Assembly (NCBI GenBank): GCA_937960715.1
Contig: CALGOO010000171.1
Span: forward strand, 1 to 60,117
Direction: 5' to 3'
Source: an uncultured Candidatus Competibacteraceae bacterium
Lineage (GTDB): Bacteria; Pseudomonadota; Gammaproteobacteria; Competibacterales; Competibacteraceae
Length of the DNA: 60,117 bases
Under the pieces are notes generated by a model, which worked only from the letters and a program-made list of their open reading frames with translations, did not search any database and was not told the DNA's origin. This document shows positions 15,316-31,161 of the stretch, in pieces; position 1 is the stretch's first letter; each line of letters starts with the position of its first letter. The position numbers were made by a program, and so were the translations under genes.

Positions 15316-16194
15316 ATGACCGCGACGCAACCCCTGATCCGTCGTCTGTGCGTCATCGGCGTCGGCCTGATCGGCGGCTCGTTGGCCCGCGCCCTGCGCG
15401 AGCAGGGCGAAGTCGCCGAAGTGGTCGGCTCCGGCCGCAACGAGGACAACCTGCGCGCGGCGATTCGCCTGGGCGTGGTGGACCGTTACGACACCGATCC
15501 CGCCCGCGCGGTCGTCGACGCCGACGTGGTGGTGGTAGCCGTACCGCTGGGCGCCATCGAATCCGTGTTGCGCGCCATCGTCCCGCGCCTGGCGACCGAC
15601 GCGGTGGTCACCGACGTGGGCAGCGCCAAGGGCAGCGTGGTGGCCGACGTGGAGCGGGTTTACGGTCACATCCCCCCCCACTTCGTGCCCGGCCATCCCA
15701 TCGCCGGCACTGAGAAGAGCGGGGTCGAAGCCTCGTTCGCGACTCTGTTCCAGCGCCGGCGAGTGATCCTGACGCCGCTGGCGGAAACCGCCGCCGCCGC
15801 CCATCGCCTGATCAAACGGATGTGGGAATTGACCGGGGCCGAGGTGGTGGACATGGGCGTGCGCCATCACGACGCGGTGCTGGCGGCGACCAGCCATCTG
15901 CCGCACATGCTGGCCTACACCCTGGTCGATACCCTGGCTCGCCTGGACGACCGGGCTGAAATCTTCCGTTACGCCGCCGGCGGTTTTCGGGATTTCACCC
16001 GCATCGCCTCCAGCGACCCGACGATGTGGGGTGACATCTGCGCCGCCAACCGCGAGCAATTGCTGGAAATGATCGCGTTGTTCAGCGCCGATCTGGCGCG
16101 GCTGGCCGAAGCGATCCGCGCCGACGACCGCGCCGCGATTCTCGCCGTCTTCCAGCGGGCCAAGCGCGCCCGCGACAACCTCTATCTGGATTGA
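15316..16194 (+). CDS. tyrA: Prephenate/cyclohexadienyl dehydrogenase
   Basis: GVGLIGGS Rossmann motif, DVGSAK, HPIAGTE, SHLPH, GGFRDFTRIA. Confidence 0.93.
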   Translation: MTATQPLIRRLCVIGVGLIGGSLARALREQGEVAEVVGSGRNEDNLRAAIRLGVVDRYDTDPARAVVDADVVVVAVPLGAIESVLRAIVPRLATDAVVTDVGSAKGSVVADVERVYGHIPPHFVPGHPIAGTEKSGVEASFATLFQRRRVILTPLAETAAAAHRLIKRMWELTGAEVVDMGVRHHDAVLAATSHLPHMLAYTLVDTLARLDDRAEIFRYAAGGFRDFTRIASSDPTMWGDICAANREQLLEMIALFSADLARLAEAIRADDRAAILAVFQRAKRARDNLYLD

Positions 16195-16235
16195 TGGAGA
16201 GCGTGGCATCACCGACCCGAAGGGGAGAGTGGGTA

Positions 16236-18452
16236 TCATCCGTACATGGCCTGAACGGCGCGGTGATTCGGGCGCACCGGTGTGGGCGTCTCGTCGCCGC
16301 GTTCCTTGATCGCCACCTCGGCGGTCAGGCACCGATAGAACTCGCGGGCGCTGGGAGTTTCATCCCATAGCTCGTACTGGCGGACCACGGCGGCCACGTC
16401 GCCCGGCGCGAGGCGGTCGAGCCGCAGCACGGCCTCCTTGCAAACCGCCACCTCGGCCAAATCGCCGCCCAGCCGGGCGAACTCCTGCGCGAACAGCCCC
16501 CAGCGCTGGCCGGGCTTGAGCCAGTCGAAGCGGATCTTCCACGGGAAGCGGCGCAGGCTGGCGGCGTCCAGGCTCTCCATCAAGTTGGTGGTAGCGATGA
16601 AGATTCCGTCGAACGCCTCCATCTGGGTCAGCAGTTCGTTGACCTGGGTCACTTCCCAGGAGCGATGCGCGCCGCGTCGGTCGCGCAGGAAGGAATCGGC
16701 CTCGTCCAGCACCAGCACCGCATCGCGCTGGCGGGCGTCGTCGAACATCGCGGCGATGCTTTTTTCCGTCTGGCCGACATACATGTCCAGCAGGTCGGAG
16801 GCGCGCTTGACCAGCAACGGCTTCTCCAGCGTGTCGGCGATATGGCGGGCCAGTTCCGATTTGCCGGTGCCGGCGGGGCCGTGGAAGCAGAAGGTGCCGT
16901 GCGGGCGGCGCTGCAACGCTGCAATCAGCCTGGGAATATCCTGATCGACGTTGAGGAAACGCAGGTCGTAGCCGGTCGGGACGTGGTTGCGCGCCGGCGC
17001 CCGCTTCTGCCGGAGCAGGGTCGCCGAGCGGTCGAGCGCCTGCCGCACCAGCGACCGATTCGCTTCCAGATCGCCGTTGCCGGCGTGGCGGGCCAGCTTG
17101 GCGGCCCGCTCCAGTTGCGCCGGGGTCAGATGTTCGTGGGCGGCGATCCGCGCCAGCCAGTCGTCCTCCCCGGCCCAGTCGCCCAGATGGTGGCGGGCGA
17201 TCTCGATCCGCACCGCCTGCGGCGGCACGGTGAAGCGAATGGCGTAGTCGAACCGGCGCAGATAGGCCCGGTTCATCGAATCGGCGTCGTTGGTCAGCCA
17301 CAGCGCCGGCACCGGGTTGTTTTCCAGGGTGCGGTTGATCCACGCCTTGCCGGCGGTGGCGTTGTCGCCCTCCCCGCCGAACAGCCGGGCGAAGGGATTG
17401 CGCTCGAACACGTCCTCGACCTCGTCGAACAGCAGCAGGGCGTTGTCGCGCCGGGCCAGCAGACGCTGGCCCAGATTGAAGGCGCGCAACCGCCGCTCGC
17501 CCCGGATCGGATCGCCGTCCTCGTTGGCGTAATCCACCTCGTACAGGTCCGCGCCCACCGCCGCGGCCAGCACGGCGGCGAATTCGGTCTTGCCCACGCC
17601 CGGCGGGCCGTACAGCAGCAGGTTGGTGCCGGGAATCCGGCGGTCGAGCGCCGCCCGCAACAGCCCGACCGCCGCCGCCGTGTCCTGGCTCAGATGGGGA
17701 AAATGGGCCAGGGTCAGGGTGCGCCGGGGCGAGCGCTTGAGGAAGCGGGCCATCAGCGTCTCGGCGTCGGCGTGCGGCGTGAACAGGATGTTCGGCAAAT
17801 CTTTCCACACGTCGAGCTTGTCCTCCAGATCGACGCTGTGCGCGGCGATTTCGACCAGCCCCGTGGTGATGAGCGTGCTGGTGGGACTCAGGGCCGCGCG
17901 GATGTCGTCCTGGGGGAGGCCGGTCAACCGCGCCAACAGCTTGTGCAGAAACGGCGTGCTCGTGCTCTGTGATTGTTGGGCGATGGCATTCTGGAAGGTG
18001 CGATCCCCTCGCAGAAACACAGCGAAACAGAGCACGGCCAGTTCGACTTCGCTCAGCCCGAGCAGCCCGGCGAGCAGATTCATGTTACGCACCAGCGGCA
18101 AATCCGGGTTCAGGGTGATTTGCGCCAGTTCCGCGCGCCGCTGCCGGAGCCGCTGGAGCAAGCGCTCCGCTGACTGAGATCGCCCGCGCGGGTCCTCGTC
18201 CTCTTCTTCTCTCTCGTCCGGCTCGGCGTCATCGCCTTCGGCCAGGCCGGTCAGGGCCATGAATTCGTCGTTGTCCCAGCAGCGATGGTGATGAAAGGGG
18301 TGGCGGCGGCGTCCGGTGCGCACCCAGCCCAGCAACAGGGCCAGATCAATCAGCCAGCGGCCCAGCACGGCGCGATAGGCGACGGTGTCGTCGTCGTCCA
18401 GCGTGGTGAGGGTGGCGACGGGGTTGGCGTGCAAAAAACGGGGTAGAGTCAT
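16236..18452 (-). CDS. Double-module AAA+ ATPase (CDC48/SpoVK-like) with uncharacterised N-terminal domain
   Basis: Walker A/B pairs GPPGVGKT / LLFDEVE and GPAGTGKS / LVLDEAD; pore loop MYVG; second regions of homology AYLRRF and ASLRRF. Confidence 0.9.
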   Translation of the reverse strand: MTLPRFLHANPVATLTTLDDDDTVAYRAVLGRWLIDLALLLGWVRTGRRRHPFHHHRCWDNDEFMALTGLAEGDDAEPDEREEEDEDPRGRSQSAERLLQRLRQRRAELAQITLNPDLPLVRNMNLLAGLLGLSEVELAVLCFAVFLRGDRTFQNAIAQQSQSTSTPFLHKLLARLTGLPQDDIRAALSPTSTLITTGLVEIAAHSVDLEDKLDVWKDLPNILFTPHADAETLMARFLKRSPRRTLTLAHFPHLSQDTAAAVGLLRAALDRRIPGTNLLLYGPPGVGKTEFAAVLAAAVGADLYEVDYANEDGDPIRGERRLRAFNLGQRLLARRDNALLLFDEVEDVFERNPFARLFGGEGDNATAGKAWINRTLENNPVPALWLTNDADSMNRAYLRRFDYAIRFTVPPQAVRIEIARHHLGDWAGEDDWLARIAAHEHLTPAQLERAAKLARHAGNGDLEANRSLVRQALDRSATLLRQKRAPARNHVPTGYDLRFLNVDQDIPRLIAALQRRPHGTFCFHGPAGTGKSELARHIADTLEKPLLVKRASDLLDMYVGQTEKSIAAMFDDARQRDAVLVLDEADSFLRDRRGAHRSWEVTQVNELLTQMEAFDGIFIATTNLMESLDAASLRRFPWKIRFDWLKPGQRWGLFAQEFARLGGDLAEVAVCKEAVLRLDRLAPGDVAAVVRQYELWDETPSAREFYRCLTAEVAIKERGDETPTPVRPNHRAVQAMYG

Positions 18453-18485
18453 GAGGCGCTCCGATCAGGTTGGTGAACGGAGCGG

Positions 18486-18520
18486 AGCATACGGCGGATA
18501 TCCGACAGGATGCGTCGGCT
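18486..18520 (-). promoter_or_regulatory. Putative WYL-dependent promoter/operator of the AAA+ ATPase
   Basis: Minus strand reads AGCCGAC-GCATCCT-GTCGG-ATATCCGCCG-TATGCT: palindrome CCGAC-N7-GTCGG plus TGTCGG-N10-TANNNT. Confidence 0.7.
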
Positions 18521-18601
18521 GGGTTGCGGCGGCACGGTTGAGGAAGGAACAGAGAATCAGACGCCGGACAGCACGCCCGTTACGGGTCGGTCATGAGGCG
18601 G

Positions 18602-19012
18602 TCATGGTGAATTCAGCCAGTTTTCCACGGTCAGGCCAGGAACCCGGCCAAACTCGCGGACGTTGTGGGTCACCATGATCGCCCCCAGCGCCAAGGCGTG
18701 GGCCGCAATCAGCGTATCCAGAGGTCCAATCGGCGTGCCCCGGGCTTGTAACTGGGCGCGGAGCGAGCCGTAGGCGGCAGCGGCGGGCGCGTCGAAGGGG
18801 GCGATTTCAAAGGTCGCGAGGAACAGCTCCAGCTTGGCGAGGTTGATCGCGCGGCGTTGGCTGGCGGCGATGCCGAAGCGCAATTCAGCCAGCGTGATGG
18901 CAGACAGCGCGATTTCGCCCTGTTGCCGACCGTCCAGGCGTCGCAGAATCGCCTCGAAGCCCGGACGCTGGTTGAGCAGGTAGATGCAGATATTGGTGTC
19001 GAGCAGCACCAT
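18602..19012 (-). CDS. vapC: PIN-domain toxin
   Basis: LLDTNICIY, SAITLAEL, PIGPLDTLIAAHA, VTHNVREFGRVPGLTVENW. Confidence 0.95.
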   Translation of the reverse strand: MVLLDTNICIYLLNQRPGFEAILRRLDGRQQGEIALSAITLAELRFGIAASQRRAINLAKLELFLATFEIAPFDAPAAAAYGSLRAQLQARGTPIGPLDTLIAAHALALGAIMVTHNVREFGRVPGLTVENWLNSP

Positions 19013-19018
19013 GCCGGT

Positions 19019-19246
19019 TCAACCAAAATCCCGTGGCTGATCGATTTCCGGTTGCTGGCGTTCCAGATCCAGCGGACCGATTTCGTCGAGCAGCGCCTTC
19101 AGATCCTGATAAGCATAGATTTTTGGCAGCAGGATGACGGCGTTACCGACCTTTTTGATCACGACCTCGTCGCCTTCAAACCGGAATTCCTTGGGGAGGC
19201 GCACGGCTTGACTGTTGCCGTTGGTAAACAGGCGGGCGGTTTGCAT
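19019..19246 (-). CDS. vapB: AbrB/SpoVT-fold antitoxin
   Basis: [21 protein letters not shown]; immediately upstream of vapC. Confidence 0.95.
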
Positions 19247-19264
19247 GGCAAGTTCTCGGAATGA

Positions 19265-19285
19265 ATGTACATCCCAAGTATATAC
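19265..19285 (-). promoter_or_regulatory. vapBC -10 element and probable autoregulatory operator
   Basis: Two short palindromes, ATGTACAT and GTATATAC, 5 bp apart, overlapping a minus-strand TATACT. Confidence 0.5.
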
Positions 19286-19492
19286 CTTTCGGTTCGTAGC
19301 TGTCCTGCGGCACGGCGCGGCGCCCGTCGAACCTTATATTCATCACTGCAGCGCAACCTGCCGCAGCAACCGCTTGCTTAGTGTGGATTTTCCTGTGATA
19401 GGGACCTGATGAGTCAATAGGCGCCACACAAAACCGCATGAAACACAATCAGGATGCGTCGGCTGAGTTCCGGGGACACACGCGACGATGGT

Positions 19493-19527
19493 ATCCGACG
19501 CAACTGGTCGCAAAGCCAGCGTATTCT
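19493..19527 (+). promoter_or_regulatory. Putative WYL-dependent promoter/operator of the hypothetical + WYL operon
   Basis: ATCCGAC-GCAACTG-GTCGC-AAAGCCAGCG-TATTCT; same architecture and N10 spacing as the site at 18486-18520. Confidence 0.7.
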
Positions 19528-19594
19528 TGTATCCGATAGCGGGCGACCGCCAAACACCGCCCGCGCCCAACTTCCCCACCCGAAGGACATCGCC

Positions 19595-20011
19595 ATGCCC
19601 CGTAAATCGACGCTGGACCCCCAAGTCAAGGCCCTGCTGGACAACCTCAATCTCGACGACGGCGGCGAGGAACTGCTCGCCGAACCCACCGAGGATACCA
19701 CTCAGCACCTGCACACCCTGTACGAACGCCTGACCAATGGTCGGGAGCGGACATTGCGCCCCGGGCAGATGGTCACATGGAAGCCGGGACTGAAGAATCG
19801 TCGCTTCCCAGCGTATGGTCAGCCGGCCATTGTGGTCGAACGGCTCACGATTCCGATTCTTGATCACGAAGCTGAGGCCGGGTCTCCGTATTATCGCGAG
19901 CCACTGGATGTGCTGTTGGGCATCTTGCGCCGGGACGGTGATTTTCTCGTCTACCATTTTGACAGTCGCCGCTTCCAACCGTACCAGGCAGACGAAACCG
20001 GAAGTCGTTAG
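19595..20011 (+). CDS. Hypothetical protein (138 aa), possibly SH3-like barrel
   Basis: AAGGA Shine-Dalgarno, ATG at 19595; LRPGQMVTWKPGLKN...DSRRFQPY; lies between the promoter and the WYL gene. Confidence 0.75.
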   Translation: MPRKSTLDPQVKALLDNLNLDDGGEELLAEPTEDTTQHLHTLYERLTNGRERTLRPGQMVTWKPGLKNRRFPAYGQPAIVVERLTIPILDHEAEAGSPYYREPLDVLLGILRRDGDFLVYHFDSRRFQPYQADETGSR

Positions 20012-20080
20012 CGGTCGTTGTCAGCGCCCGGACGTTCGGCGCAAACGCCCGCTCTCCCCCGCCCCATCAGGGAACCGCTG

Positions 20081-21181
20081 ATGAAAGAAGACGCCATCAC
20101 CACGTTCAACCGCCGCCTGCGCATTCTGGCGATGTTCAAGGGCAGCGAGCCGCTCACGACGCAAATGATTTTCAAACGGTTGCAGGGGACCGCCGAGGAA
20201 ATGGACGAGCGCTCGGTGCAACGGGTCCTGGCGCTGCTGGGCGAGGCCGGTTTTCTGGAAACGGTCAATCTCGATGCCAAGCCGTTGCAGTGGCGTTGGC
20301 CCAAGGGGCGAAAGTTCATGGCTCTGCCCCGGCTGTCGGATCAGGAGGTGCTGGCGTTTCGGCTGCTGGAGCTGTTTCTGAAACCGCTGTTACCCCGCGA
20401 GTCCTACCGGGCGCTACGGCCCTACTTCGAGACCGCTCGCGGTGAACTCAACGACATGCCGTTCTGGGCGCCGGTCAAGAACTGGGAGGCGAAGGTGCGA
20501 GTGGTGCCGCCGGCGCAACCGCTGTTGCCGCCGGAGCCGCCGCCCGGACTGACTGGGGAGACCGCCCGCCAGGACTGGGAACGCCAGCAGGAACAGACGC
20601 GAGCGGCGCTCCTGGAAGCCCTGTTCGAGAACCGGCAGTGCGCGGTCGAGTACCAGCAGCTCTGGCGGGACGAACCGGCGCGCTGGACGCTGCATCCTCT
20701 CGCGTACCTGCAACGCGGACCGGCGTTCTATCTGCTCTGCACCATCGCCGAGTACGCCGACGTGCGGCAACTGGCCGTGCACCGGATGCTGTCGGCCATG
20801 GTGCTGGACCGGAAAGCGAGCAAACCGGCGGGCTTCGACGTGGATCGGGAAGTGGAGCGCAGTCAAGGCATGGGCGGTAGCGGCGAACCGCTGCGACTGG
20901 TGGCCCGGTTCTGGAAACGCGCCGGACTACATTTGCTGGAAACCCGCCTGGCCACCGATCAGGTGGCGGAGGACGAGGGCGACGACCATTTCCGGCTCAC
21001 CGCCACCGTCAACGACACCGCGCAACTGCGCTGGTGGCTATTGTCGTTCGGCTCCAAGGTGGAGGTGCTGGAACCCACTGAGCTGCGGGAGGAAATGGCG
21101 ACTCAGGCGTATTGGATGAATCGGATGTATGCGAGGTCGAGTTCGCCACCAGAGAGCGCAATCATTATGGAGCGGTCATGA
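20081..21181 (+). CDS. WYL-domain transcriptional regulator (wHTH-WYL-WCX)
   Basis: HTH ERSVQRVLALL; WYL core LHPLAYLQRGPAFYLLC...RQLAVHRM; WCX LRWWLLSFGSKVEVLEPTELRE. Confidence 0.92.
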   Translation: MKEDAITTFNRRLRILAMFKGSEPLTTQMIFKRLQGTAEEMDERSVQRVLALLGEAGFLETVNLDAKPLQWRWPKGRKFMALPRLSDQEVLAFRLLELFLKPLLPRESYRALRPYFETARGELNDMPFWAPVKNWEAKVRVVPPAQPLLPPEPPPGLTGETARQDWERQQEQTRAALLEALFENRQCAVEYQQLWRDEPARWTLHPLAYLQRGPAFYLLCTIAEYADVRQLAVHRMLSAMVLDRKASKPAGFDVDREVERSQGMGGSGEPLRLVARFWKRAGLHLLETRLATDQVAEDEGDDHFRLTATVNDTAQLRWWLLSFGSKVEVLEPTELREEMATQAYWMNRMYARSSSPPESAIIMERS

Positions 21182-21246
21182 GGCGGTCGTGGCGAATTCA
21201 GCCGGTTTTCCACCGCCAGGCCCGGAACTCGGCCAAACTTGCCGAC
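21173..21246 (-). pseudogene. Degenerate duplicate of the vapC 3' end
   Basis: Aligns to 18588-18661; translates VGKFGRVPGLAVENRLNSPR versus VapC VREFGRVPGLTVENWLNSP-stop. Confidence 0.8.
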
Positions 21247-21273
21247 ATGAGTGGATCGCCACGACCGCTTCAC

Positions 21274-21804
21274 TCACCCCTTGATCGGTTCCATCACCGC
21301 GTCCAGGTTCAGGTCGTCGCAAAAATCCAGAAATTCCTCGCGCAACAAGGCGATGTGGGTATTGGCGGGGACACCGATGGCCAGGTTGACCGAGAACATC
21401 GGCGTGCCGGTATGCGGCGCGCTGTAGCTCTTGGTGACCATGTCCTCGATGTTGATCGAGCGGCTGGCGAAGAAGCCGGCCAGATGATGGACGATGCCCG
21501 GTTGATTGACCGCCACCACCTCCACCGCGTAGGGCAGCGCGTCGCCCACCGGCGGGCGGTTCTCGGTGCGCTTGGCGACGATGGTCAGGCCCAGAGTCTG
21601 CTCCAGCCGCTTGAACTGCATTTCCAGCTTGGTCAGGGTATTCCAGTTGCCTTGCACCAGCAGCAGGATGGCGAATTCGCCGCCCAGCACGGTCATGCGA
21701 CTGTCCACGATCCCGCAATCGCAGTCCAGGATCACGCGGGACAGTTCGTTGACCAGACCGGGGCGATCTTCACCCAGGGCGGAGACGACCAGATAATTTT
21801 TCAC
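21274..21804 (-). CDS. gcvR: Glycine cleavage system regulator (two ACT domains)
   Basis: LVVSALGEDRPG, IVDSRMTVLGGEFA, NQPGIVH, LREEFLDFCDDLNLDA. Confidence 0.92.
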   Translation of the reverse strand: MKNYLVVSALGEDRPGLVNELSRVILDCDCGIVDSRMTVLGGEFAILLLVQGNWNTLTKLEMQFKRLEQTLGLTIVAKRTENRPPVGDALPYAVEVVAVNQPGIVHHLAGFFASRSINIEDMVTKSYSAPHTGTPMFSVNLAIGVPANTHIALLREEFLDFCDDLNLDAVMEPIKG

Positions 21805-22050: not shown

Positions 22051-23007
22051 ATGGCCACCGGGCCGGAGAACGCCGCCGCCATGAAGACCGACAAGCAGAT
22101 TCACGCCCTGCTGGCGTCCAGCCCGGAGGCATTCCGCTTCCTGACCGACGGGATCGAGTTGAACGGTCCCTATCAAGGCCGCTCGGTGGTCTTCAAGGAC
22201 CTGGAACGGCGGGCCGACCACGTGTTCGAAGCCGATGACGGCAAGGGACCCACCTACCTCATCGAGGTCCAGGCCCAGCACACCGGCGATGTCTACGACC
22301 GGCTGGTGCTGGAACTCCTGCTGTACCGCCGCGCCCACCCGGAACGCACCGTCCAAGGTCAGGTCATTTTCCTCACTGCGAGCTGCGACGAACCGGACTG
22401 GCCATGGGCCGAATGGGTCGGGCGAGGGCCGCTGCGCAAGCCGGTCTATCTGGACCAGGTGCTGGAAAAGGCCCGGCAACACCACCCCGATCACCCCCTG
22501 CTGGCGGTCTTTTTACCGTGGTTCGCCCGCGATGCGGAACTGGCGCAACAGGCCCCGCTGGCTTGGCGACGGCTGGAAGCGCTCACCGAACCCGGCGCCG
22601 CGGTCCTGCTCGACGTGTTCATGTCCTGGATGATGGAGCGATTTAAAGGTCAAACCTACGAGGAGGTTCTCCGCATGTTACAAGTACTCACTCCCCTGGA
22701 AGAAACCCGCGCTTATAAGGAACTGGTCGCTATCGGTATCGAGAAGGGTAAAAAGGAAGGCCGCGAGGAAGGTAAAAAGGAAGGTAAAAAGGAAGGTAAA
22801 AAGGAAGGTCAGGCTGAAGGTGAAAAATGGGGTCGCCAGAAAGAAGCGCGGGCGCTGCTGACCAAGCAACTTCGCCGGCGGTTTGGCCAGTTACCCCGCT
22901 GGGCCAGCGCCCGTCTGCGCCAGGCAGACACACAGCAACTGGAAACCTGGGCCGAGAACATCTTCGATGCCAAGGAGTTGACGGATTTGCTCGGCCCAAA
23001 GCCTTGA
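22051..23007 (+). CDS. Rpn-family PD-(D/E)XK nuclease (DUF2887-like) with C-terminal DUF4351-like domain
   Basis: MKTDK...FKDLERRADHVF...IEVQ; GxxE repeats; QLRRRFG...LETWAENIFDAKEL. Start is 22051 or 22081. Confidence 0.85.
   Translation: MATGPENAAAMKTDKQIHALLASSPEAFRFLTDGIELNGPYQGRSVVFKDLERRADHVFEADDGKGPTYLIEVQAQHTGDVYDRLVLELLLYRRAHPERTVQGQVIFLTASCDEPDWPWAEWVGRGPLRKPVYLDQVLEKARQHHPDHPLLAVFLPWFARDAELAQQAPLAWRRLEALTEPGAAVLLDVFMSWMMERFKGQTYEEVLRMLQVLTPLEETRAYKELVAIGIEKGKKEGREEGKKEGKKEGKKEGQAEGEKWGRQKEARALLTKQLRRRFGQLPRWASARLRQADTQQLETWAENIFDAKELTDLLGPKP
22675..23007 (+). CDS. Putative internally translated Rpn small antitoxin (110 aa, in frame)
   Basis: AGGAGG at 22661-22666, 8-nt spacer, in-frame ATG at 22675. 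Confidence 0.6.
   Translation: MLQVLTPLEETRAYKELVAIGIEKGKKEGREEGKKEGKKEGKKEGQAEGEKWGRQKEARALLTKQLRRRFGQLPRWASARLRQADTQQLETWAENIFDAKELTDLLGPKP
22747..22830 (+). repeat. 12-bp tandem repeats encoding GKKE/GxxE
   Basis: GGTAAAAAGGAA occurs four times plus degenerate copies. Confidence 0.9.
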
Positions 23008-25265
23008 TCGCCCCGACCAAGGAAACCGATGCCCGCATCCTGATCGACGATCAGTTGCGCGCGGCGGGCTGGAATCCGGCCGACAAGTCGCAGGTGTTGA
23101 CCGAGGTCAAGACCTCGGGCTGCTGGCATGGCGTGGCCGAACCGGAATCGCAAAGTACCGTTCTCTCGACTCAAGACGGCGACGCCATTCCCACCGGACG
23201 GGCCGATTACGTCCTGCTGGATTCGCGCGGCAGGCCGCTGGCCGTCATCGAATCCAAGCGGCAGGCCATCCAGCCGTATGTGGCAAAACAGCAGGCGCTG
23301 CCTTACGCCAAACAGATCGGCGCCCCCTTCATCTTCTTGACCAACGGCGAACTGATCTACTTCTGGGATTATCGGAACGACGACGCACGCATCGTCCAGT
23401 CGTTTTTCTCGCGCCGGGACTTGGAACGCCTGGTCCACATGCGCGGCACCCGCCAGCCGCTGGCCACGGTCCCCATCCCGGACACCTATTTCCGCCAGGG
23501 CGAAACCCGATGGCTGCGCCCCTATCAAACCGAGGCCATGCAGGCCCTCGACCGCACGGTGGAACTCGGCAAGCGCCGCTTCCTCATCGAATTGCCCACC
23601 GGCTGCGGCAAAACCGATTTGATCGCGCTTTACCTCAAGCGCCTGATCGAAGCCGGCCACGCCGAACGGGTTTTGTTTCTGGTCGACCGCGATCAACTGG
23701 CCAAGCAGGCCATCGAAGCCATTCAGGACCTGTTGCCGGGACATTCGAGCTATTGGCTCAAGTCCGGCATGGTTCGCCAGGAACAACAAATCACTGTGTG
23801 CCTGCTGCAAACCATGATCGGCCGCTACCCCGAGTTCACCAGCGGCTACTTCGACGTGGTGGTCGCCGACGAATGTCACCGCTCGATTTACGGCGCCTGG
23901 CAGACGGCGCTCATCTACTTCGATGCCCTGCACATCGGCCTCACCGCGACACCGGCCCTGTATATCGAGCGCAATACGTTCCAGTTCTACCACTGCAAGG
24001 ACGATACGCCCGACTACTCGTACTCTATCCAGCAGGCGTTCCAGGACAGGTTTCTCGCGCCCTACCGTTTCGCCACCGGCATCACCACGCTGGTGTCCGA
24101 GGGGGCCGACGTGGACGAAGAACATTACGACCCTGCCGAGTTCGAGCGCCAATGGACCAACGAGGCGAGCAATCGGCTGATGATGGCGGAGTTCGACCGC
24201 CTCGCCTGGGAAAATTACCGGGAACTGGCTCCCGGCCAGAAAATCGGCCCCGGCAAGGCGGTGATCTTCGCCATCACCAAACATCACGCCGCCCGATTAA
24301 CCCAGTATTTGAACGAACTGCACCCCGAATATCAGGGGCGCTACGCCGAGGTCATCACTTCGGATGTCGCCAACCCCGACGACCTGATCCGCTGTTTCAA
24401 GCGGGAAGAGTTGCCGATGATCGCGGTCAGCGTCGGGATGCTCGACACCGGTTTCGATTGCCGGGAAATCCTGCATCTGGTGATGTGTCGCCGTGTGCGC
24501 AGCCCGATTCTCTACCAGCAAATGCGGGGTCGCGGCACCCGCCCGGCGCCGCACATCGATAAACGGAAGTTCGTCATTTACGATTTCTTCCGCAATCATG
24601 AGTATTTCAACGACTCGGACACCGACATCTTCTCTGGCGGCGACAGCGGCCACGCACGCAAACCTCAGCCCGTCAAGGCCAAGACCGCCCGCGAGTTGAT
24701 CGAACTGGGGTTGGAAGACGAATGGCTCGATGCCGTTCATTACATCGAAATCGGCCCCGACGGCGAGCGGGTGGACAAGCGTGATTACGTCACCGACTGG
24801 GAGCGGGCCATCCGCCAGCAGGCCGACCGCGATCCGATTCTCGCCAAGGTCAAGGCCGGCGAGGCGCTCACCGACGCGGAAGAAACCGAACTGGCGCGGC
24901 GCTTGAACCAGCCCGAATGTTATTTCAACGAAGACAACCTGCGCCGCGCCTATCGCAATCCGGGCGGCAATCTGGTGGACTTCATCCGCGCCGCCCTGGG
25001 AATGCTGAAACTCAAGAGCCGCGAAGAGCGCGTCGAGGACAATTTCCGCGCCTGGCTGGTGGCCAAGAATCTCGCCCCGGCGCAGGCACAGTATTTGGCG
25101 CTGCTCAAGAATCGGGGCCTGGTCAAGGGTCGGGTCTCGCTGGACGATCTTTTTAACCCGCCGCTCTCCATCCTGAACGCGGCCAACATCGGCATCGAAC
25201 TGTTTGGCGAGGAGGGTCTCAAGGCCGTGATGGATGAAATCAACCAGGCCGTGCTGGTGGCGTGA
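23004..25265 (+). CDS. hsdR: Type I restriction endonuclease subunit R (short, EcoAI/EcoEI-like)
   Basis: GRADYVL...IESK nuclease motif; PTGCGKT, DECH, GLTATP, MLDTGFD, QMRGRGTR; probable TTG start overlapping the rpn stop. Confidence 0.92.
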   Translation: MIAPTKETDARILIDDQLRAAGWNPADKSQVLTEVKTSGCWHGVAEPESQSTVLSTQDGDAIPTGRADYVLLDSRGRPLAVIESKRQAIQPYVAKQQALPYAKQIGAPFIFLTNGELIYFWDYRNDDARIVQSFFSRRDLERLVHMRGTRQPLATVPIPDTYFRQGETRWLRPYQTEAMQALDRTVELGKRRFLIELPTGCGKTDLIALYLKRLIEAGHAERVLFLVDRDQLAKQAIEAIQDLLPGHSSYWLKSGMVRQEQQITVCLLQTMIGRYPEFTSGYFDVVVADECHRSIYGAWQTALIYFDALHIGLTATPALYIERNTFQFYHCKDDTPDYSYSIQQAFQDRFLAPYRFATGITTLVSEGADVDEEHYDPAEFERQWTNEASNRLMMAEFDRLAWENYRELAPGQKIGPGKAVIFAITKHHAARLTQYLNELHPEYQGRYAEVITSDVANPDDLIRCFKREELPMIAVSVGMLDTGFDCREILHLVMCRRVRSPILYQQMRGRGTRPAPHIDKRKFVIYDFFRNHEYFNDSDTDIFSGGDSGHARKPQPVKAKTARELIELGLEDEWLDAVHYIEIGPDGERVDKRDYVTDWERAIRQQADRDPILAKVKAGEALTDAEETELARRLNQPECYFNEDNLRRAYRNPGGNLVDFIRAALGMLKLKSREERVEDNFRAWLVAKNLAPAQAQYLALLKNRGLVKGRVSLDDLFNPPLSILNAANIGIELFGEEGLKAVMDEINQAVLVA

Positions 25266-25270
25266 ATAGA

Positions 25271-25420
25271 CCCCCCACCCCAACCCTCCCCCACAAGGGG
25301 GGAGGGAGTCTTATTGGCTCCCCCTCCATCAAGGCCACGATCAACGAGGCCGCGCGAGGTGGCGGGAAGGAGTCTTGTTGGCTCTCCCTCCCCTCCGTGG
25401 GAGGGAGTTGGAGGGAGGGG
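25271..25420. repeat. REP-like C-rich/G-rich palindromic element
   Basis: Hairpin CCCTCCCCC-ACAAG-GGGGGAGGG, an inverted degenerate copy at 25384-25420, and internal direct repeat GGAGTCTTRTTGGCTC. Confidence 0.65.
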
Positions 25421-25446
25421 CGAACGATGACAACCAAGGCAACAAC

Positions 25447-27090
25447 GTGAATCCACAACTGCGCCGCAAGCTCGATCACATCACCGACACCCTCTGGGCC
25501 GGTGGCGTGACCAATCCGGTGACTTATATCGAGCAGATTTCCTACCTCATCTTCCTGAAACTGCTGGACGAGGAGGAATCCGACCGCGAGCTGCGCATCC
25601 GCCTGGGCGCGACGGGCGGCAACGCCAAACTGCTGTTCCCGGCGCAGGCCGAGCGTTATCGCTGGAACAAATGGCGCTTCAAGAGCGGCAACGCGCTGCG
25701 CGATTTCATCCGCGATGAGGTATTTCCCTACATGGCCTCGCTCGCCAGGGACGAGCCGGAAGTGGCGGAATATTTCCGCGATGCGGTGCTGGAGATCGTC
25801 GATCCCAACGTGCTCAAGCAGGTCATCGACGAACTCGACGGTTTTGAATTCCGCAAGCTCGGGCCGGACGTGAAGGGCGACATCTTTGAATACCTGCTGG
25901 TGCATCTCGGTTCCAGCGCGCTCAACGGCCAGTTTCGCACCCCGCGCCAGATTCGCGCCTTTATGGTCGAGATGGTCGATCCCGACCTCGGCGATGCCCT
26001 TTTTGATCCTGCCTGCGGCACGGCGGGTTTCCTGATCGATGCGGTGGATTTCCTGCTCGCCAAGTATTCCGATCACATCAGCGAATACCCGATTTACGGC
26101 GAGGACTGGCTGGACAAGAAGGGCAAGACGGTCGCCGAACTCAAGGCCGAGAACCCGCGCTTGCAGACTTATCGCAAGGGCGCGGGGGAAAAGATTCCGG
26201 AGTGGGCGTTGCTGGAAAGCGCGATTTACGGGACCGATGTGTCGCGCCAGATGGTGCGGATCAGCATGATGAATCTGGTGCTGCACGGTATCCGTCACGC
26301 ACGGCTCAAGCGCGCCAATTCGCTATCCGACATGGGCGGACTATCCGAGGACGATCTGCGCCGCCGCTACCAGGTGATCCTGGCTAATCCGCCGTTTGCC
26401 GGTCAGTTGCCCAAGGATTCGATCCGCGCCGACCTGCCCACCCACAGCAAGAAAAGCGAGTTGCTGTTTTTGTCGCTGATGATGCTGCACCTCGCTCCCG
26501 GCGGGCGCTGCGCGGTGGTCGTGCCCGAAGGGCTGCTGTTCGGCTCCACCGGCGCGCACGTCGATCTGCGCAAGAAGCTGATCAACGACTTTGATCTGCT
26601 GGCGGTGGTGAGCCTGCCGGCGGGTGTGTTCAAGCCTTACGCGGGCGTCAAAACCGCCGTACTGGTGTTTCGCCGGCCTGCTTCCACGAGCGCCGCCCGG
26701 CTGGATAAAGTCTGGTTCTACGAGGTGCGGAACGACGGTTACGACCCGGACAAGGTCGCGGGCGGCGGTCGCGTGGAAACGCCGGACAAGAGCGACATTC
26801 CCGACCTGCTCGCCCAGTGGAAAACCTACAAGGCCGGCGGCTTCAAAACCCCGCCGGGACTGGAAGCGAACAGCTTGTTACCGCACGGCAGCGCAGAACC
26901 GAGTTGCTGGTGGACCACGAAGGAGAAGCTCATTGAGGCGGATTACAACCTCGGCGCCGGGCAGTGGAAGCCGCGCGTGGCGGAGAAAGTCAGCGATGAA
27001 GACCCGTGTGAGTTGGTGAAGGAAGTTCTCGCCGATTACCGGCATGTGGTGGCGGGACTGGAAAAGCTGTTGGCGGAGTTAGAGGAATGA
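25447..27090 (+). CDS. hsdM: Type I R-M N6-adenine methyltransferase subunit M
   Basis: WAGGVTNP...IEQISYLIF, GQFRTPR, DPACGTAGFL, NPPF; GTG start at 25447. Confidence 0.95.
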   Translation: MNPQLRRKLDHITDTLWAGGVTNPVTYIEQISYLIFLKLLDEEESDRELRIRLGATGGNAKLLFPAQAERYRWNKWRFKSGNALRDFIRDEVFPYMASLARDEPEVAEYFRDAVLEIVDPNVLKQVIDELDGFEFRKLGPDVKGDIFEYLLVHLGSSALNGQFRTPRQIRAFMVEMVDPDLGDALFDPACGTAGFLIDAVDFLLAKYSDHISEYPIYGEDWLDKKGKTVAELKAENPRLQTYRKGAGEKIPEWALLESAIYGTDVSRQMVRISMMNLVLHGIRHARLKRANSLSDMGGLSEDDLRRRYQVILANPPFAGQLPKDSIRADLPTHSKKSELLFLSLMMLHLAPGGRCAVVVPEGLLFGSTGAHVDLRKKLINDFDLLAVVSLPAGVFKPYAGVKTAVLVFRRPASTSAARLDKVWFYEVRNDGYDPDKVAGGGRVETPDKSDIPDLLAQWKTYKAGGFKTPPGLEANSLLPHGSAEPSCWWTTKEKLIEADYNLGAGQWKPRVAEKVSDEDPCELVKEVLADYRHVVAGLEKLLAELEE

Positions 27091-28379
27091 GGTGGTTGCA
27101 GACAACTATAGGTGAAATCTGCTTGCCAACCGTGCAAATAGATCCCACTCGAAAGGGCACAGAAAGCTTTCGCTATATAGACATCGCAGGTATTGATCGA
27201 GAGCAAAAAACTATTTTCCGTGCTGATCCTAGCCCATGCGAGTCTGCACCCAGTCGTGCCCGAAAGCTTGTCCAAGCTGGAGATGTCTTGGTCTCTACTG
27301 TTCGCCCTAATCTAAATGCGGTTGCACTCGTACCTGAAGAGCTTGATGGTGAAATCGCCTCAACTGGCTTTTCCGTGCTTCGTGCAAATCAAAAACTCGT
27401 TAATCCTCACTATTTGTTTTATCGGGTACAGCACCAAGAGTTTGTTGCCTGCCTAGTGGCAAACGCTACGGGCGCAAGTTATCCCGCCGTAACGGATGGT
27501 GTAGTTCGACGTGTTTTCTTACCCTTGCCGTCCCTGAAGGAGCAAGCCCGCATCGTCGAAATTCTCGACGAAGCCGACCGGTTGCGCCGACTGCGCCGTG
27601 TGGCCGACTCCAAAGCCACCCGCATTCTACCTGCGCTGTTTCTCAAGATGTTTGGCGATCCTGAAACTAATTTGAAAAACTTTCCGGTTGTAAAATTGGG
27701 AACCATGATTGAGGATGGTCCACAAAATGGACTCTATAAACCGAGTTCAGCCTATGGTAAAGGCGTCCGAATCCTGAGAATAGATGGTTTTTATTCCGGT
27801 CAAATAACCGATATTTCGGTCTTAAAACGCTTGGAAATTCGCCCTAATGAAATCGCAAAATATGGCCTCCATGAAAATGATATCGTCATAAATCGTGTGA
27901 ATAGTGAAGAATATCTAGGAAAATCGGCAATCATTCCTAAACTCGATGAATCAGTTGTCTTTGAATCGAATATGATGCGGCTTTCAGTCGATTTGACACA
28001 AATAGATCCACTCTTCTTGATCGCACATCTCCAGACGCCATTCACGAAAAAAGAAATTCTCCAAAAAGCAAAAAGAGCCATTAACCAAGCAAGTATCAAT
28101 CAGCAGGACATTCGAGCATTATCTATTCTCAAACCTCCGATAGAATTGCAAATTCGTTTTGCCTCAATTGTCCAAGGAGCCAACGCAACGCTTTCAGTAA
28201 TGGCAGCTACCATAGGTAAACTGGATCATCTTTTCGATCTTCTTCTACATCAAGCCTTCTCCGGCCAACTCACCGCCAAGTGGCGCGAAGCGCACAGCAA
28301 AGAACTGCTGGCCGAAATGGAGCAGCAGGCCCGGCTGCTGAACCTGCCGCTTCCGAAAGAATTGGAACTTGCCCCATGA
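27087..28379 (+). CDS. hsdS: Type I R-M specificity subunit S
   Basis: Two TRDs with conserved PLPSLKEQARI and PPIELQIRF segments and central MFGDP; ATGA overlap with hsdM. Confidence 0.93.
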   Translation: MRWLQTTIGEICLPTVQIDPTRKGTESFRYIDIAGIDREQKTIFRADPSPCESAPSRARKLVQAGDVLVSTVRPNLNAVALVPEELDGEIASTGFSVLRANQKLVNPHYLFYRVQHQEFVACLVANATGASYPAVTDGVVRRVFLPLPSLKEQARIVEILDEADRLRRLRRVADSKATRILPALFLKMFGDPETNLKNFPVVKLGTMIEDGPQNGLYKPSSAYGKGVRILRIDGFYSGQITDISVLKRLEIRPNEIAKYGLHENDIVINRVNSEEYLGKSAIIPKLDESVVFESNMMRLSVDLTQIDPLFLIAHLQTPFTKKEILQKAKRAINQASINQQDIRALSILKPPIELQIRFASIVQGANATLSVMAATIGKLDHLFDLLLHQAFSGQLTAKWREAHSKELLAEMEQQARLLNLPLPKELELAP

Positions 28380-29470
28380 GCGCAAAGGTACCGGCGCACT
28401 ACACCGCCTTGCTGAGCGACATCAAGCAGCGCATCCGCCATGCCCAGACGCGGGCGGTGCTGGCGGTCAACGCCGAACTGATCCGCCTCTACTGGGAGAT
28501 CGGCGCTCTGATCGACGCCCGACAGAAACAGGAAGGCTGGGGCGCGGCGGTGATTCCCCGCCTGGCGGCCGATCTGCACAACGATCTGCCGGAAGAGAAG
28601 GGCTTTTCCGAGCGCAACATCAAACGCATGTTGGCGTTTTACCGCGAATATCCGGCGCTTGAATTAGCGCCACCGGCGGTGGCATTCCCACAGGCCAGCG
28701 CAGAAGTGCCACAGCCTGTGGCACTTTTTACGCCGGAGATGGTGCTGGCACTGCCCTGGGGGCACCACGCAGTGCTGATGGAAAAGATCAAGGATGCCGC
28801 CACCCGCCAGTGGTACATGCGCGCCTCGGTCGAAAACGGCTGGAGCCGCAATATCCTGCTGATGCAAATTGAATCGGCGGCACACACGCGGCAAGGCGCG
28901 GCCGCCAGCAATTTTGCGCTGCGCCTGCCGGCGCCCGATTCCGACCTGGTGCAGCAAACCCTGAAGGACCCATATCTGTTCGATTTTCTGACACTGCAAG
29001 AGCCTTTCCACGAACGGGAATTGGAAACCGGCCTCATCGCCCATCTGGAAAAATTTCTGCTCGAACTCGGTCGGGGTTTTGCTTTCGTGGGACGGCAATA
29101 CCACTTGGACATTGGCGAGCAGGATTTCTACATCGACCTGCTGTTCTATCACCTCAAGCTGCGCCGCTACGTGGTGATCGAACTCAAGCGCGGCGCTTTC
29201 AAACCGGAATACGCCGGCAAGATAAACTTCTATTGCAACGTAGTAGACGACCATCTGCGCCACGGCGATGACAAGCCGACCATCGGCCTGATTCTATGCC
29301 AGCAACCCAACCGCGTGTTGGCCGAGTATGCGCTGCGCGGCATGGATAAACCCATCGGCGTATCGAGTTTCGAGCTGACCCGCGCCCTGCCCGAAACTTT
29401 ACAATCCAGCCTGCCCAGTATCGAGGACATCGAGCGCGAGTTGGGCGATGTCAACGGAGATACCTCGTGA
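28376..29470 (+). CDS. YhcG/DUF1016-family PD-(D/E)XK nuclease
   Basis: AVNAELIRLYWEIG, GFSERN, KDPYLFDFL, LLELGRGFAFVGRQ, IDLLFYH, VIELK. Confidence 0.93.
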   Translation: MSAKVPAHYTALLSDIKQRIRHAQTRAVLAVNAELIRLYWEIGALIDARQKQEGWGAAVIPRLAADLHNDLPEEKGFSERNIKRMLAFYREYPALELAPPAVAFPQASAEVPQPVALFTPEMVLALPWGHHAVLMEKIKDAATRQWYMRASVENGWSRNILLMQIESAAHTRQGAAASNFALRLPAPDSDLVQQTLKDPYLFDFLTLQEPFHERELETGLIAHLEKFLLELGRGFAFVGRQYHLDIGEQDFYIDLLFYHLKLRRYVVIELKRGAFKPEYAGKINFYCNVVDDHLRHGDDKPTIGLILCQQPNRVLAEYALRGMDKPIGVSSFELTRALPETLQSSLPSIEDIERELGDVNGDTS

Positions 29471-31161
29471 GCCGCCGCCTCACCGCCCTGCGCGTCGGCA
29501 ACTTCAAGGCGTTTGCCAATACCCAGCGCATCCCGCTCAAGCCCATCACCCTGATCTTCGGCCCCAACAGCGCCGGCAAATCCAGCTTCATTCACAGCCT
29601 GGCGCTGGCCCACGAAGCGCAATTTGGCCGCGACAAGCGCAGCCTCGCCCGCCTCGATGTCCATCACACCGATATCGGGGGCAGCAGCATCGATCTCGGC
29701 GGTTTTCGCCAATATATCCATCGTGGCCAAGCCAACCGCCGGGTCGAATGGGGCGCGGAATTGGCGGTCGCCAGCTTCGGCGGACGTCTCGCACAACTGC
29801 TCGCACCGGTGAACACGATTACGGTGACGCTCTGCCTGGGCATTGAACTAGACGATCAGGACCGCCCCAAACCGGGCGCCGCGCCGAAGGTGGAAGCCAT
29901 CGAGATCAGCGCCGACAGCGCCGAACTGCTGCGCATGAGCCGCCGACGTTCCGACGCTCACGGCAGCCTCCTGCGCCTGGACCGTCTGGATGCCGCTCAT
30001 CCCGTTTTCCGGCAGGTGCTCAAGGCCATCGTCGAATCCGCCACCACCTCCGAAGAGATGCGCCCGGAAGACTTCGAGGGCGCCAACACGGCCATCGCCG
30101 ACCTGCTGCCCGAGTTGCAAGTCCGCGTCGAACAGTTTTTCCCGACCGCCGTGGAACTGCCCAAGGCTGAAGGCGCGGAACTCTCGCCCGTCAGCCTGCT
30201 GTTCCCGATCAGCAAGGGCAATCGGCGCGAAGACATCGCCCAAGCCGTGCGTTTCTATCTGCCCCGCACGATCAACGACCTCGTCAAGGGACTTTCCGAC
30301 GTGCTGGCCGATGAACTCAAACACCTTCAGTATCTCGGCCCCCTGCGCTCCTTCCCGCCCCGCCACCTCGCCTTTGCCGAGCACGAAGACGCCAACTGGT
30401 ACGCCGGGGGCGGCTATGCGTGGGACGTGGTGCGGCGCGATGACCAAGTGCGCGAAGTGGTGAACGGCTGGTTGGGTTCCGACAAACTGAAGACGCCCTA
30501 CAAGCTCGTCGTGCGTTCGCTTTTCGGTATGGATACCATCGAAGAGGTTATTGAGTCTCGATTGGAAGAGATCGAAAAAAGTGAACTTGACTTCATGCCT
30601 GGTGATTTTCAGGAAAATCCTGCTGCTTACCCTCAAATTGGTCTTCCGTATCTCAGGGATCATCAAAAATCTCTTGAGAAAACGATTGCGGCTTTTCAAG
30701 AAGAACCGGGCAGATTGCTGAGTGAGCTAGTCCTGATTGATAAGCGTATTAACACGGTCGTCACTCACCGAGACGTGGGTATTGGCATCTCTCAAGTTCT
30801 TCCCGTTCTGGTCATGGCCTACGGTTCACAGGGTAAGCTGATCGCCATGGAACAACCGGAAATCCACCTCCATCCGGCATTGCAAGCGGAATTGGGCGAT
30901 GTCTTTATCGAAGCCGCACTCGGCGAGCGCCAAAACACTTTCATTCTGGAAACCCACAGCGAGCATTTGATTTTGCGATTAATGCGCAGAATCCGTGAGG
31001 GAAAGATCCATCCGGACGATGTCGGGGTGGTATTCGTCGAACCGTCGAGTCATGGGAGCCGATTGATCGAATTGCGCCTGGATGAAGAGGGTGATTTCAT
31101 CGACGAGTGGCCTGGAGGCTTTTTCGAGGAGTCCTTCCACGAGAAATTCGCGGGGCGCTGA
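29467..31161 (+). CDS. ABC-type ATPase (AAA_15/AAA_21) with C-terminal DUF3696
   Basis: NFKAF, GPNSAGKSS, DVGIGISQVLP, EQPEIHLHP, ETHSEH, DEWPGGFF. Confidence 0.9.
   Translation: MSRRLTALRVGNFKAFANTQRIPLKPITLIFGPNSAGKSSFIHSLALAHEAQFGRDKRSLARLDVHHTDIGGSSIDLGGFRQYIHRGQANRRVEWGAELAVASFGGRLAQLLAPVNTITVTLCLGIELDDQDRPKPGAAPKVEAIEISADSAELLRMSRRRSDAHGSLLRLDRLDAAHPVFRQVLKAIVESATTSEEMRPEDFEGANTAIADLLPELQVRVEQFFPTAVELPKAEGAELSPVSLLFPISKGNRREDIAQAVRFYLPRTINDLVKGLSDVLADELKHLQYLGPLRSFPPRHLAFAEHEDANWYAGGGYAWDVVRRDDQVREVVNGWLGSDKLKTPYKLVVRSLFGMDTIEEVIESRLEEIEKSELDFMPGDFQENPAAYPQIGLPYLRDHQKSLEKTIAAFQEEPGRLLSELVLIDKRINTVVTHRDVGIGISQVLPVLVMAYGSQGKLIAMEQPEIHLHPALQAELGDVFIEAALGERQNTFILETHSEHLILRLMRRIREGKIHPDDVGVVFVEPSSHGSRLIELRLDEEGDFIDEWPGGFFEESFHEKFAGR

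Follow-up and report, generated by a model that had tools for sequence, protein, structure and literature searches.

Sites of the WYL regulator DriD of Caulobacter crescentus stand at one fixed distance from the −10 element, in promoters devoid of a −35 element; in the accessible text of PMC13004042, DriD is not autoregulated, and at its divergent promoter a single box serves a single direction. That text prints two DriD promoter sequences, which read as box, 11 nt and CAnnnT, the −10 element being our own assignment. For DdaA of Acinetobacter, the available part of PMC12392091 gives the consensus CGWCA-N5-TGWCG. Before its transfer into the Moraxellaceae, DdaA is presented there as having putatively regulated neighbouring genes of unknown function, and it is described as self-regulated in basal lineages; ddaA is reported not to be induced in A. 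baumannii. According to an excerpt of PMC13010146, DdaA depends on residues R47, R51, Y173 and Y200 to bind promoters and to sense damage. The mycobacterial PafBC is a heterodimer that acts by sigma adaptation at a non-palindromic site, in promoters of the form tGTCgg(N10)tA(N3)T (excerpts of PMC8635444). SiwR of Mycobacterium smegmatis is described in the accessible part of PMC10693628 as a homodimeric WYL activator of adjacent genes, with an imperfect palindrome and a −26 element. BrxR and CapW are named as repressors in the portion of PMC13004042 available.

We analyzed a window of 60,117 nucleotides from an uncultured Candidatus Competibacteraceae bacterium (contig CALGOO010000171.1), where two promoter motifs lie close to a gene encoding a wHTH-WYL-WCX protein. 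Judged from sequence, the two motifs are conserved promoters of the DdaA/DriD class, carried by an accessory module. The reading that we favor, with a probability of about 0.8, is that a WYL dimer sensing single-stranded DNA (ssDNA) binds the two boxes and recruits the sigma-70 RNA polymerase, leftward for a double-AAA ATPase gene and rightward for orf138 and probably for the WYL gene itself. If it works like DriD and DdaA, the homodimer would bind ssDNA in its WYL/WCX pocket. R44 and R48 would let the two wHTH domains read the two half-sites, and the dimer, once bound, would help the sigma-70 polymerase onto a promoter without a −35 element. The left promoter would drive the ATPase, and the right promoter orf138 and, across the 69 nt that follow it, the WYL gene, which would create a positive feedback. 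Binding, activation, the ssDNA trigger, the co-transcription of orf138 with the WYL gene and the start sites, predicted near 18479 (minus strand) and 19534 (plus strand), are what we infer.

Sequence and layout of the two promoters

The initial annotation had described one motif on each strand, and both were read in the sequence exactly as claimed (Table 1). Each is made of a 15-bp pseudo-palindrome CGAC-N7-GTCG with a GC-rich center, followed by 11 nt and by the hexamer TATNCT. The end of the left motif is separated by 33 nt from the start codon of the ATPase gene, and that of the right motif by 67 nt from the start of orf138. The consensus proposed for the pair occurs exactly twice in the 4.11-Mb genome, and the claimed absence of a canonical −35 element is borne out, the best match to TTGACA at a spacing of 15-20 nt being 2/6 for both promoters. 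A TG extension was looked for in the two promoters and is absent from both, and a sigma-70 scan detected neither of them. The pair of boxes forms the longest inverted repeat within 16000-21400. The bare 15-mer CGAC-N7-GTCG occurs 354 times genome-wide; in the window it is found 5 times versus 2.64 expected, a value reached in 11 of 100 shuffles and thus not above chance. Because the bare 15-mer is so common, the case rests on the combination of the box, the fixed spacing, the −10 element and their conservation.

Table 1. Promoter elements, genes and gene remnants of the module (window coordinates).
Feature	Position	Strand	Description
Left promoter	18486..18518	minus	CCGAC-GCATCCT-GTCGG, 10 nt, TATGCT (18518 to 18486)
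Left 15-bp box CGAC-N7-GTCG	18517-18503	minus	11 nt to −10 TATGCT (18491-18486)
Right promoter	19495..19527	plus	CCGAC-GCAACTG-GTCGC, 10 nt, TATTCT
Right 15-bp box	19496-19510	plus	11 nt to −10 TATTCT (19522-19527)
Double-AAA ATPase, 738 aa	16236..18452	minus	Pfam AAA, two stretches, E 2e-38; first gene of the left promoter
WYL 3′-end-like remnant	18564..18601	plus	part of the 98-nt repeat
vapC-type PIN toxin gene	18602..19012	minus	Pfam PIN, E 3e-23; passenger between the boxes
vapB-type antitoxin gene (MazE/AbrB fold)	19019..19246	minus	Pfam MazE_antitoxin, E 2e-10
Broken third box	19450..19462	minus	only the first half present; no second half or −10
orf138, 138 aa	19595..20011	plus	no Pfam, NCBIfam or PADLOC family
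wHTH-WYL-WCX regulator, 366 aa	20081..21181	plus	Pfam WYL and WCX; DdaA family
vapC 3′-end remnant	21178..21246	minus	adjoins the 3′ side of the WYL gene

The layout is that of DriD promoters in the accessible texts (PMC10853764, PMC13004042), with CGAC-N7-GTCG, 11 nt to the −10 element and no −35 element. The distance from the site to the −10 element is also the same as that of PafBC in the excerpts available (PMC8635444). The initial annotation had called the motif a DriD/PafBC hybrid. Since DriD and PafBC sites share one distance to the −10 element, and the printed DriD promoters already combine the box with 11 nt, the supposed hybrid is an ordinary DriD-class promoter. A PafBC-type system was rejected: PafBC is a heterodimer at a non-palindromic site, whereas a single WYL gene faces a box of two halves here, and there is no adjacent WYL pair, the other WYL gene of the genome being split and on a different contig. 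The SiwR system, as described, resembles the present one as a homodimeric WYL activator of adjacent genes working through an imperfect palindrome, and differs from it in lineage, in site and in its DinB-family targets.

The boxes fit the DdaA consensus at 9 and 8 of its 10 positions. Position 5 is a consistent variant, being G in 50 of 52 sites (the search pattern allowed G or A).

Relation of the regulator to DdaA and DriD

The WYL protein is 28% identical, over residues 7-337 (E 1e-42), to a chromosomal WYL protein of Acinetobacter baumannii (334 aa), which carries no annotation and which we have taken as DdaA from its length of 334 aa and its R47/R51. The homology extends over the full length and keeps the helix arginines, the ssDNA tyrosines and the A-x-H-R strand. 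R44, R48, Y191 and Y217 align with the four DdaA residues named above; among 32 homologues, Y191 and Y217 are invariant and A232 is nearly so. A232 would correspond to the DdaA-family alanine that replaces one WYL arginine, if the column is assigned correctly. These comparisons place the protein as a probable member of the DdaA family. The closest characterised regulator appears to be DdaA, which the initial annotation had not named. In the tree, a group of 27 rows including DdaA stands apart from three DriD-like alphaproteobacterial rows with a support of 89/99, short of strong support, on long branches and with DriD itself not among the rows.

DriD provides the closest solved structure and, as here, is encoded by a single wHTH-WYL-WCX gene. 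Similarity to DriD is, however, detected over WYL/WCX only. The recognition helix reads RSVQR instead of RTAER (Arg37-Glu40-Arg41 of DriD), Glu40 being replaced by Gln. The box centers are GC-rich and not AT-rich as given for DriD in the available part of PMC10853764, and a box here heads the putative WYL operon. An orthologue of DriD is ruled out by the Gln at the place of Glu40, the GC-rich centers and the box heading the putative WYL operon.

The WYL protein could bind the boxes and repress, as BrxR and CapW do, the promoters being released on nucleic-acid sensing. The box overlaps the place where a −35 element would lie, a type I restriction-modification cluster lies near this accessory locus, and BrxR and CapW are also WYL regulators that control their own operons in accessory or defence regions. 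Island repressors typically regulate themselves. Repression is nevertheless very unlikely because there is no −35 element to block (best match 2/6); the rigid 11-nt spacing, seen in the accessible DriD sequences, is an activator geometry. The protein also resembles DdaA and DriD much more closely than the repressor structures: a profile of the 32 homologues matched DriD with E 2e-16 and PafBC with 9e-13, versus 0.07-0.4 for 7qfz and 7tb5/9c5g. The entry 9c5g is labelled CapW, and we take 7qfz to be BrxR and 7tb5 to be CapW. Membership of the BrxR/CapW class was rejected, the clade not being matched and no operator covering a complete sigma-70 promoter (no −35). By the activation that we favor, some WYL genes on islands may encode activators and not the repressors usually assumed.

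The window carries the only intact WYL gene of the genome. A second DdaA-like WYL gene, with a box of its own, lies on another contig (G000:C242:43500-44545) and is split between two frames in the assembly. Its box faces a small divergent gene that resembles membrane-protein genes, and the same layout is present with an intact gene in genome G080. It is scarcely credible that another regulator, such as this second one, reads the boxes of the window, since the C242 gene is split and the box tracks with orthologues of the window's WYL gene across the family.

Conservation of the layout and anatomy of the locus

The strict pattern gave 58 matches in 31 of 88 family genomes, versus one match for the reversed control. 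When the spacing was left free between 6 and 16 nt, 58 of 70 distinct cores had 11 nt (hand counts), and the reversed control gave 44 matches summed over all 11 spacings (hand count). The layout was also recovered at loci chosen by protein and not by motif. Orthologues of the AAA gene (at least 64% identity) had box, 11 nt and −10 element at 28-36 nt before the start in 24 of 27 loci, which are all 24 that could be assessed (two of the others are at contig ends, and one has a split gene). For loci found via the WYL protein, the layout was present in all 12 distinct AAA upstream regions. At these loci, the outer bases of the box are 96-97% conserved, the 11-nt spacer 58-62%, and −10 positions 2 and 6 are 100% conserved. 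Conservation is highest at the half-sites and at −10 positions 1, 2 and 6, and is reduced in the spacer. Orthologues of orf138 showed a direct match in 16 of 20 distinct upstream regions. The motif is thus conserved upstream of orthologues, beside a WYL protein of the activator clade, and in this the reading of a WYL-activator promoter in the initial annotation is supported.

The strict box is present in 21 of 24 genomes with a close WYL orthologue versus 10 of 64 without, in genomes that are kin and not independent. In the ten genomes with a box and no close WYL orthologue detected, most assemblies are fragmented. Since the genomes are related and many family matches descend from one ancestor, the counts show conservation and not independent origins. 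At three loci from two genera, the recognition helix reads xSLVLR or PTLVLR instead of RSVQR and the left box ends in GTCC and not GTCG. This co-change weakly suggests that the box and the protein are partners, and it offers natural variants of helix and box for studying how the site is read.

The two boxes are 976 nt apart, and the vapBC pair and a broken third box, both overlooked in the initial annotation, lie between them. A relative with an intact third box (L002) has 83 nt extra at 19449/19450, containing the missing half and the −10 element; alignment with L002 shows the same 83 nt missing from the window and from the relative L003. Because L002 holds the rest of the box and its −10 element in these 83 nt, the right box natively pairs, back to back, with the broken box at 19450-19462. 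The "twin divergent promoters" of the initial annotation therefore do not stand as a pair: the left motif is the ATPase gene's own promoter and not the native divergent mate of the right box. In three relatives (L009, L010 and L011), the box of the ATPase gene directly adjoins that of orf138, back to back with it, and two contigs of RNA run X2, which come from relatives and show neither strand, start nor level, join 18518-18522 to 19489-19493 with 20-26 letters between.

A promoter scan found that vapB has its own sigma-70-like site at 19306-19277. A 30-nt direct repeat that includes a box flanks vapBC, and a 98-nt repeat (18564-18661 with 21149-21246, 81% identity) contains the WYL and vapC 3′ ends. 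The WYL and vapC remnants in this repeat suggest a tandem duplication and a deletion; in the relatives L001 and L012, a complete vapC or vapBC occupies the position of the window's vapC remnant. The boxes themselves could likewise be recombination junctions or relics of tandem duplication and not regulatory sites, as might be read from the direct repeat, the remnants and the frequent location of boxes at module borders in relatives. This is highly improbable: conservation follows the half-sites and the −10 positions and dips in the spacer, and the distance to the start codon is fixed for each target gene. Among the window gene calls, looked over in part, no recognisable recombinase lies beside the module.

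The gap of 69 nt between orf138 and the WYL gene raises the question of whether the latter belongs to the induced transcript. The boxes could activate only the AAA gene and orf138, the WYL gene being expressed constitutively from a weak promoter of its own, as driD is. The gap is consistent with this, as are the lack of self-regulation of DriD and of induction of ddaA in the accessible texts cited above. We consider such an arrangement unlikely because orf138 directly precedes the WYL gene in 13 of 14 related loci (the other contig starts inside the WYL gene) and because neither a terminator-like nor a sigma-70-like site was found in the gap. In addition, a WYL homologue on a Citrobacter plasmid has box, 11 nt and CATACT ahead of its own gene, and basal DdaA homologues are reported as self-regulated in the available text (PMC12392091). 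The right box thus likely heads an operon that includes the WYL gene.

Related modules are found at differing sites, beside gcvR-dapA, beside prfA-hemA and on a plasmid, and the WYL gene is patchily distributed across the family. Because the sites vary and the distribution is patchy, the module is an accessory unit. It is a mobile one with a local regulon, and not the global damage regulator of the cell. In the window, the left end of the module abuts tyrA (15316-16236), on which the ATPase gene converges; no aroA-like gene follows tyrA within the window. Between gcvR and dapA, an insertion at 22051-31161 carries a DUF2887 gene, type I restriction-modification genes, a YhcG/PDC-S02-like gene and an AAA_15 ATPase gene; it is missing at the same site in the relatives L004 and L008.

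Outside the family, homologues of the ATPase on distant plasmids have a WYL gene nearby in 9 of the 13 loci inspected of 21 records, which span gamma-, beta- and alphaproteobacteria and Desulfobacterota. The strict layout stands directly before the ATPase in 2 of these 13 loci, and looser matches are present in four more. Exact cores are enriched at 11 nt (5 versus 0-2), an enrichment that disappears when one mismatch is allowed. The neighbours of these distant loci (nucleases, Sir2, ADP-ribosylglycohydrolase and helicases) point, by guilt by association, to defence or to a damage response. The 11-nt spacing recurs in the boxes of DdaA-like WYL genes carried by Citrobacter and Marinobacter plasmids (L088:6850; L087:6928 and 8446), and one of these boxes stands ahead of the WYL operon itself. 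At three loci (L003:2465-5814, L010 and L013), two genes lie 3′ of the WYL gene, the second being weakly ZacB-like (E 1e-8). Near WYL-AAA in Pantoea, Rhodoferax and Desulfosarcina plasmids, a similar gene pair precedes a gene annotated as a helicase or phospholipase D.

Putative target genes and extent of the regulon

A weight-matrix scan of the genome gave scores of 36 and 33 to the two sites; elsewhere scores were at most 20, which is the level of the shifted-spacing controls. A genome-wide regulon was rejected, with 2 strong sites in 4.1 Mb and as many weak matches at shifted spacings as at 11 nt. A third strict match, on contig C131, lies inside the reading frame of a repeat protein. The type I restriction-modification genes at 22-31 kb were discarded as targets, no window site reaching 14 besides the two. 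Pattern scans of metagenomes and viral contigs yielded at least 128 loci, and one of the 128 listed has a WYL match; most of the matches listed are either chance matches or belong to a repeated low-GC element whose reading frames resemble reverse transcriptases. The "searchable regulon" anticipated by the initial annotation hence shrinks to two strong sites in this genome, and the search works within the family only.

This local regulon distinguishes the module from DdaA of the Acinetobacter type, as do its patchy, mobile distribution and its targets, namely the AAA ATPase, an SH3-like protein, DUF2779 and a glycosyltransferase copy. The box was absent before all 30 recA genes of the family whose upstream regions were scanned (one region was only 42 nt long), and it was not found before the recA of the genome itself. 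The latter (G000:C149:10210-12078) has an in-frame, intein-like insert within an open frame of 729 aa; recA is likewise split at profile position 198 in about ten other family genomes. A likeness to DdaA lies in the host: LexA was detected neither in this genome nor in any of the 16 genomes of its genus, and 13 of 88 family genomes passed the LexA cut-off. The LexA DNA-binding domain was found in 0/16 genomes of genus g1, 0/9 of genus g10, 0/12 of genus g11 and 0/12 of genus g29.

The ATPase shows a weak winged-helix match at its N-terminus (WHD, E 2.4e-5, below the cut-off). It was rejected as IetA of the IetAS defence system, with 117.5 bits versus a cut-off of 510 and a likeness limited to the AAA core; its flanks are tyrA and vapC and not the S8 peptidase expected of IetAS. 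The model of orf138 displays an SH3/KOW-like barrel at residues about 47-131 (pLDDT 79). A wide structure search gave a best Z of 6.6 (rmsd 2.3, 59 aligned residues), tied among SH3/KOW-type folds and within the range usual for unrelated SH3-like barrels, and Foldseek returned no match at E 0.001. The protein has 227 homologues; besides two family members, it is found in 2 of 400 genomes of the class, and the one inspected is without a box.

Further genes headed by the box in relatives are DUF2779 genes, a PP2C gene, a dual-specificity-phosphatase-like gene, unnamed genes of 145 and 159 aa and a TIGR03013 glycosyltransferase gene; one plasmid carries five boxes in 10 kb. The glycosyltransferase was surveyed in its best 30 loci. 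All eight copies with at least 62% identity to the plasmid copy have a box 37-41 nt before the start, versus none in 21 of the 22 copies at 53-58%, the remaining one having a poor match. The genome of the window has no such glycosyltransferase gene at E 1e-40.

Literature searches on WYL with AAA ATPases and on island activators returned no title or abstract on the module, and no paper was found that pairs WYL with DUF2779 or Competibacter with WYL. This set of targets was not found in print by a search that misses most subscription papers. The switch is already known; its target genes here are undescribed, and they make the value of the locus: the accessible text on DdaA leaves the targets of the local homologues open (PMC12392091), and the box gives a defined, testable list. 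This list is led by the double-AAA ATPase and by the accessory glycosyltransferase copy, which has the box whereas the resident copies are without it.

A broader reading, which we find doubtful, is that LexA-less, glycogen-accumulating Competibacteraceae possess a dedicated programme against stress or phages, run by a mobile ssDNA sensor that amplifies itself. Under one and the same box, this programme would comprise the ATPase, its SH3-like partner, a DUF2779 protein with a PP2C phosphatase and the duplicated glycosyltransferase, and would remodel the cell surface. If true, the local stage proposed to have preceded the global role of DdaA would survive here, and the sensing of damaged or foreign DNA would lead to changes of the cell surface.

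The accessory TIGR03013 paralogue, of the exopolysaccharide-priming type (L045:12151-13530 and L275-L282), is often followed by a dual-specificity-phosphatase-like gene. At another locus (L047:8646-12635), an open frame of 1330 aa under a box fuses a DUF2779 protein, a PP2C-like part and further sequence.
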